From: a virus
Taxonomy: Duplodnaviria; Heunggongvirae; Uroviricota; Caudoviricetes
Virus record (IMG/VR): IMGVR_UViG_2671180435_000008
Reading direction: 5' to 3' (one strand)
Length of the DNA stretch: 4,367 nt
The notes under the pieces were generated by a model that saw only the letters and a list, made by a program, of their open reading frames with translations, was not told the DNA's origin and searched no databases. This document shows, piece after piece, positions 3,958 through 4,367 of this stretch (position 1 is the first letter of the stretch; each line of letters begins with the position of its first letter). The translations under genes and the position numbers were made by a program.

Positions 3958-4353
3958 TTAATCATCATTAATATCTTTCATATTCAATTTGCAATTTTCG
4001 TAGGTCACTCCCGACTCGCCATTAACATTAACTCCAGCTCTGATATTCCCGTTTTCTTTTACATCTACAAAAAACTGGCCTCTTGGCATCTTGAACGCAA
4101 ATGTAAAACCAACAGTATCTGAATCAAAATCATCATCTTTATATATTGGGATCAAAAATGTCATCGTCGCTGGTGATGCATTGTTTGCAAAATCAAATAC
4201 ACCTATACTTTTGCCGAATTCATAAGAAGCTTTTCTCAATATAATCGCACCGCTGGCAGAAGGGGATGGGCACGATATCCTCAGTTGTCTGAATCCATCT
4301 GTATCCAAGTCAACGTCATTATCTGCAGATGTTTTAACGGGTAATGACTCCAA
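3958..4353 (-). CDS. AT-rich hypothetical ORF of unknown function, probably a 5'-disrupted gene remnant next to IS1
   Basis: 131-codon ORF at about 36% GC, against about 57% for neighbouring phage genes. It has no ATG: the track start is a TTG that lies inside the IS1 terminus (4351-4353), and the first in-frame ATG would leave only about 68 codons. No family was recognised from the translation. It has its own intrinsic terminator. Confidence 0.35.
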   Translation of the reverse strand: MESLPVKTSADNDVDLDTDGFRQLRISCPSPSASGAIILRKASYEFGKSIGVFDFANNASPATMTFLIPIYKDDDFDSDTVGFTFAFKMPRGQFFVDVKENGNIRAGVNVNGESGVTYENCKLNMKDINDD

Positions 4354-4367
4354 CTTATTGATAGTGT
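4340..4367 (-). mobile_element. Terminal 28 bp of a second IS1 copy in inverted orientation; body lies right of the window
   Basis: Positions 4340-4367 read GGTAATGACTCCAACTTATTGATAGTGT, the exact reverse complement of window positions 4-31, i.e. the same IS1 insB-proximal terminus facing inward. Confidence 0.8.

Follow-up and report, generated by a model that had tools for sequence, protein, structure and literature searches.

Gene inactivation by a simple IS1 insertion is a known phenomenon. Such insertions are recognized by canonical left and right inverted repeats (IRL and IRR), by a 768-bp element coding for insA and insB', and by a duplication of the target, 8-9 bp being the expected length, and they split the gene that they enter. 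IS expansion and pseudogenization are characteristic of Shigella (PMC8072062). IS1 ends are also known from fusion promoters, for which PMC9330008 cites the examples of bla TEM-1 (Prentki 1986), TEM-6 (Goussard 1991) and acrEF (Olliver 2005). The promoter of IS1 itself is extremely weak and repressed by InsA (PMC12428005; PMC12903888), and host transcription from upstream enters the element (PMC12428005). InsAB' is translated from <2% of transcripts and requires a -1 frameshift at A6C, insB' alone shows no independent translation, and lacZ placed directly after the insAB' stop of a native chromosomal IS1 yields about 1 unit (PMC12903888).

Here we analyzed a window of 4,367 nucleotides of tailed-phage DNA, at one end of which an AT-rich ORF of 131 aa without a Pfam match (3958-4353, minus strand) begins at a TTG codon located within an IS1 end. 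The locus has all three defining features of a simple IS1 insertion, namely the inverted repeat sequences, the size and coding content of the element and a 9-bp target duplication, and its sole peculiarity is the phase that lets the TTG of the IRR open the frame of the gene remnant next to it. We conclude with high confidence that the ORF is a dead remnant and its TTG start an annotation artefact.

An exact-protein look-up showed that the window is the entire contig CXBX01000237.1 of assembly GCA_001254035.1, from Shigella sonnei. Both of its ends are an IS1 IRR facing inwards, one at 4340-4367 (minus strand) and one, read as the reverse complement, at 1-31 (plus strand), and database matches over these ends are annotated as IS1 family transposase. 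The short-read contig thus ended at both sides where the assembler reached multi-copy IS1. Between the two repeats lies a Mu-like phage tail and baseplate run, with every gene on the minus strand: the start part of a baseplate J gene (27-515), a GP46 family protein gene (508-918), a gp45-like protein gene (924-1457), a gpP/gp44-like hub protein gene (1435-2523) and a DNA circularization protein gene (2520-3911). A scan of the window against Rfam gave no match. At the other side of the AT-rich ORF, the IS1 that starts at 4340 extends past the window, with insA and insB' transcribed on the minus strand, toward the window.

The complete insertion could be read in S. sonnei 3233-85, where a 56.9-kb contig (L017) spans the whole locus. 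Genes for tail sheath, tail tube, tail assembly chaperone and tape measure are followed there by the 5' part of the interrupted gene, with its native Shine-Dalgarno (SD) sequence (GGAG), its GTG start and its first 37 codons, then by IS1, the remnant, and the DNA circularization gene onward. This IS1 (L017 8983-9750) is a complete 768-bp element with a PF03400 product, co-directional with the interrupted gene. The 9-bp target duplication CGTTAAAAC flanks it on both sides; one copy occupies 4331-4339 of the window (minus strand) and covers codons 34-37. The outer 28 nt of the IRR, GGTAATGACTCCAACTTATTGATAGTGT, at 4340-4367 (minus strand) of the window, are identical to the IRR of this complete element. 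The accessory gene is interrupted, not deleted. The sequence-only reading had offered a dead, 5'-truncated remnant as one of two options. Its first half is supported and its second does not hold, since the 5' 37 codons and a copy of the target duplication flank the other side of IS1; the remnant appears truncated only because the contig breaks within the IS1 repeat.

A contig that ends in IS1 at both sides, as this short-read one does, raises the suspicion that the junction arose in assembly, through the joining of an IS1 k-mer to a chimeric contig end. We give this almost no credence: the junction recurs in 21 contigs from independent assemblies, and the 56.9-kb contig contains the whole IS1 with its perfect 9-bp duplication. 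When one-genome-per-species contigs were searched for exact copies of the junction, none was retrieved, and among complete E. coli genomes IS1 was found at this site in none, all 11 loci being uninterrupted.

L017 also contains the element whose IRR closes the left end of the window. This second IS1 (L017 14157-14924) is complete and inverted, lies in the baseplate J gene and is flanked by the target duplication GGGGGCGCA, with the window's copy at 32-40; its IRR in the window (1-31) is identical to that of the complete IS1 in L017. It carries PF03811, PF12759 and PF03400 and differs from the first copy by 1 base. Deletion or inversion between the two inverted copies was considered and ruled out, both target duplications being intact and the gene order collinear with E. 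coli.

What the first IS1 interrupted is seen in 11 complete E. coli genomes, which carry an intact gene of 483 bp and 160 aa with a GTG start (e.g., WP_000594909.1) between the tape-measure and DNA circularization genes. The 3' part of this gene, codons 35-160 with the stop, occupies 3958-4339 of the window (minus strand) and is 100% identical to the WP_000594909.1 gene (L001:6059-6440); at the protein level, residues 6-131 of the ORF match residues 35-160 of the E. coli product exactly, and there is no mismatch to E. coli from 3900 to 4339. Homology to the uninterrupted E. coli prophages stops precisely at 4339, which places the first base of IS1 at 4340 and the TTG 14 nt inside the element. 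With 100% identity between the remnant and the intact allele in E. coli, sequence decay provides no argument that the remnant is dead. The insertion is young.

The gene looks like an accessory gene inserted in the tail operon, given its low GC content (35-38%, vs 51-58% in the tail genes) and a terminator of its own. The latter is an intrinsic terminator with a 10-bp stem followed by a T-run, at 3930-3952 (minus strand), just downstream of the gene. This strong terminator precedes the DNA circularization gene, inside a stretch expected to form one late tail operon. The Mu-like phage vB_EcoM-720R4 has a homologue with 50% identity at this position, flanked by Mup42 and Mup43. The family is small: 15 representatives were found at E<=0.001 among 1.84 billion proteins.

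We further asked what the insertion took away from the product. The 34 residues missing from the remnant are MIKPFLMTVAILTSCCAQAKILTNEEIVSRFISN. Read directly, they have the layout of a signal peptide, with a basic residue, a hydrophobic core and then AQA, plus LTSC, a motif compatible with a lipobox. A comparable hydrophobic leader is found at the start of every full-length relative, and two cysteines are conserved among them. From its sequence, the intact product would be a small exported or secreted protein. The remnant of this Mu-like tail region family matches phrog_5586 ("unknown function") at profile positions 32-161 of 161 only, so that it lacks residues 1-34 and, with them, the N-terminal signal peptide of a full-length match, while it is otherwise identical to the E. 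coli protein.

An AlphaFold model of the family built from 14 sequences reached a pLDDT of 83 and a pTM of 0.77 (a run with 9 sequences gave a pLDDT of 46). In it, residues 24-41 form a helix, which eight beta-strands follow. IS1 splits this helix in the middle, at residue 34/35, and takes 11 of its 18 residues from the remnant. Searches with the gene product against Pfam, NCBIfam and PADLOC gave no match, nor did a profile search against the PDB. When the model with a pLDDT of 83 was compared by Foldseek with the PDB and BFVD, nothing was retrieved at E<=0.001 and TM-scores were at most about 0.55; the resemblance to small beta-barrels (lipocalin, FABP, avidin, GID4) is vague only.

On the other side of IS1, the 5' stub (L017 8873-9004) retains the SD sequence, the GTG and the signal peptide. 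It comprises 43 codons, the last six of which run into the IRL (…SNVKT-VMLPTY*), and was found in at least 20 assemblies as separate small gene calls (P0011 and P0030) on contigs that break off after the tape-measure gene. To judge from this sequence, the stub could give rise to a 43-aa peptide bearing the signal peptide. By analogy with the IS1 copies described in PMC12428005, the region upstream of the stub and the tail operon, both of which point into IS1, could also raise transcription of the transposase.

The TTG at which ORF finders begin the remnant lies at 4351-4353 (minus strand) and contributes M-E-S-L-(P). It is the sole listed start for this ORF and is situated 14 nt inside IS1, as the sequence-only reading had stated. 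That reading had also placed an in-frame TAA of canonical IS1 about 18 nt further into the element, and this proved accurate: a second S. sonnei contig (L008), with 120 nt of IS1 retained, shows the TTG at 108-110 preceded 18 nt upstream by the in-frame TAA (90-92). Also in L008, the ORF starts at 108, just after a gene call for a DDE_Tnp_IS1 fragment that stops at 106. A fusion with InsB, which had been argued against from this TAA, is ruled out by the in-frame stop. The insB'/insAB' reading frame, a different one, ends at 4357-4355.

The TTG was further thought to have been created by the junction. This is not the case: it lies entirely within IS1 and is therefore present in every IS1 copy. 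Among the three outward frames of the IRR, one has the TTG and the other two have no ATG, GTG or TTG, and so a third of co-directional IS1 insertions yield an ORF that starts with MESL. The window provides an internal control. In the IRR at its other end, the same TTG (18-20, plus strand) opens an ORF of just 11 codons (18-53; MESLPAPPCGM*). The features of the ORF that starts at the junction TTG do not exceed chance, and its length at the right end reflects merely the leftover open frame of a genuine gene.

Is the TTG used all the same? Of the three common start codons, TTG is the weakest. The 18 nt upstream of it pair with the 3' end of 16S rRNA at +1.6 kcal/mol in the best duplex; the regional median is -2.5 kcal/mol, and the native GTG, the DNA circularization start and the tape-measure start reach -5.9, -6.4 and -8.9, respectively. 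The SD complementarity 5-10 nt upstream that would mark a genuine start is lacking, and the internal in-frame starts of the remnant have no anti-SD duplex better than -3.0 kcal/mol. Consensus scans found no sigma-70-like site at the junction. The single such site in the 1.5 kb scanned (L017 8700-10200), CTGCCA-16-TATGAT, lies in the IRL and is the IS1 promoter itself. These results bear out the earlier remark that no good SD sequence precedes the TTG, as well as the judgment that the case for IS-driven expression is weak, with no promoter-like site at the junction and the first 34 codons missing.

One arrangement, absent from the earlier reading, deserves attention. The insB'/insAB' stop codon TAA (4355-4357, minus strand) lies inside the IRR, 1 nt upstream of the TTG, so that the stop (4357-4355), a single G and the potential start (4353-4351) adjoin each other as in translational coupling. 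A theoretical route of termination and re-initiation is thus conceivable: read-through from IS1, the stub or the tail operon, followed by re-initiation at the TTG after the InsAB' TAA, would give a low-level cytoplasmic 131-aa protein with an MESLP tag. Besides the TAA-G-TTG geometry, IS1 is co-directional with the gene, the promoter region of the stub and the tail operon are oriented toward the junction, and transcription from upstream enters IS1 and yields transcripts that extend to the end of insAB' (PMC12428005; PMC12903888). Read-through transcription across the junction from within or upstream of IS1 is plausible.

Translation weighs against this route. Ribosomes reach the TAA only after frameshifting at A6C, which concerns <2% of a signal that itself amounts to about 1 LacZ unit; insB' is not independently translated (PMC12903888). 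The transcript is very rare, and by these published data hardly any of the ribosomes on which coupling depends would arrive. According to the same reporter data, the route is quantitatively negligible. Moreover, the TTG is a weak start codon with no SD sequence (+1.6 kcal/mol), and a product would have neither the signal peptide nor 11 of the 18 residues of helix 24-41. The layout is a by-product of the IRR sequence, identical at every IS1 copy, with nothing specific to this locus. We therefore hold production of the tagged protein to be very unlikely.

The same geometry could be viewed more broadly, with TAA-G-TTG as a general re-initiation device through which every in-phase IS1 insertion would yield traces of an MESL-tagged protein truncated at its N-terminus. 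If this were true, the device would produce here a cytoplasmic version of a prophage protein that is otherwise secreted. We regard so general a function as even less probable than re-initiation at this one locus.

IS1 fusion promoters offer another comparison, since here too an IS1 end abuts a co-directional coding sequence. A hybrid promoter at the junction would drive a shorter product from an internal start. Such promoters arise when IS1 ends combine with flanking -10 boxes (PMC9330008), and the TTGGAG of the IRR, read directly, matches the -35 hexamer at 4/6 positions. However, no usable -10 box is found at the proper spacing: the hexamers 16-18 nt away (CATCTG, ATCTGC and TCTGCA; flank positions 9-16) match TATAAT at 0-2 of 6 positions, and the consensus scan was negative at the junction, with no pair of -35 and -10 elements. 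Transcription from such a promoter would also begin downstream of the TTG and leave it off the mRNA, and the internal in-frame starts on which a shorter product would depend have no SD sequence (best -3.0 kcal/mol). Unlike in the described cases, what lies downstream is not an intact silent gene but a fragment with neither start codon nor SD sequence. A fusion promoter at this junction is accordingly most improbable.

Altogether, a new expressed gene is very probably not present, and we favor the dead remnant with an artefactual start. In our reading, a simple IS1 transposition in an S. sonnei lineage split a small prophage accessory gene. The 768-bp element entered co-directionally at codons 34-37 and duplicated 9 bp, leaving the promoter region, the SD sequence, the GTG, the signal peptide and the first 11 residues of the helix upstream of IS1. 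The downstream part has no start signals of its own, and the TTG of the IRR is in phase with it by chance. ORF finders and some database records therefore extend the remnant to this TTG. We infer that the remnant is not expressed; most likely it is not translated, and any trace product would be without its export signal and a portion of its fold.

The artefact has entered the databases. CST24788.1, "Uncharacterised protein [Shigella sonnei]", is the entry for the 131-aa product, with the N-terminus MESLP, and WP_252861237.1 is a partial record of the remnant with the N-terminus ESLP. Gene calling on the contig of the window itself settled on an internal TTG, giving a product of 93 aa. The start that is called varies with the amount of IS1 kept on the contig. 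CST24788.1 and WP_252861237.1 have IS1-derived N-termini and should be treated as pieces of a 160-aa gene that IS1 interrupted. For IS1, an element very abundant in Shigella, this annotation artefact is expected at a third of co-directional insertions.

Biologically, the locus is another case of IS-driven prophage decay in S. sonnei. Upstream of the tail sheath gene, L017 contains an IS4-like transposase and an IS3-family element (HTH_Tnp_1 and rve) at 1492-4522. Together with the two IS1 copies, this amounts to at least four IS insertions in one prophage, which is visibly decaying.

Several smaller differences were found elsewhere in the window. In the baseplate J gene (minus strand), 110 nt are absent at 90/91 in comparison with E. 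coli (L001 2090-2199) and with the S. sonnei contigs L008 and L003. The loss shifts the frame, so that the stub of this gene encodes 162 aa in the window vs 224 aa in other assemblies, and its stop in the window is a TAA from the IS1 end (27-29). The edges of the gap share only a 3-nt microhomology (atc), and either a deletion specific to this strain or an error in assembly may account for the loss.

The gpP/gp44-like gene contains a (CCAGCA)n repeat at 1953-1975, which encodes (LV)n on the minus strand and has two more units (+12 nt) than in E. coli. Its length differs between S. sonnei assemblies, with products of 358, 360 or 362 aa. Further along the same gene, a 1-nt deletion in a T-run at 1475/1476, again relative to E. 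coli, alters the C-terminus of the gpP-like protein; the ORF overlaps the gp45-like gene by 23 nt instead of stopping at its start. This deletion is an additional sign of prophage decay. Finally, a 3-nt deletion at 814/815 keeps the GP46 family gene in frame, with a product of 136 aa vs 137 aa in E. coli.
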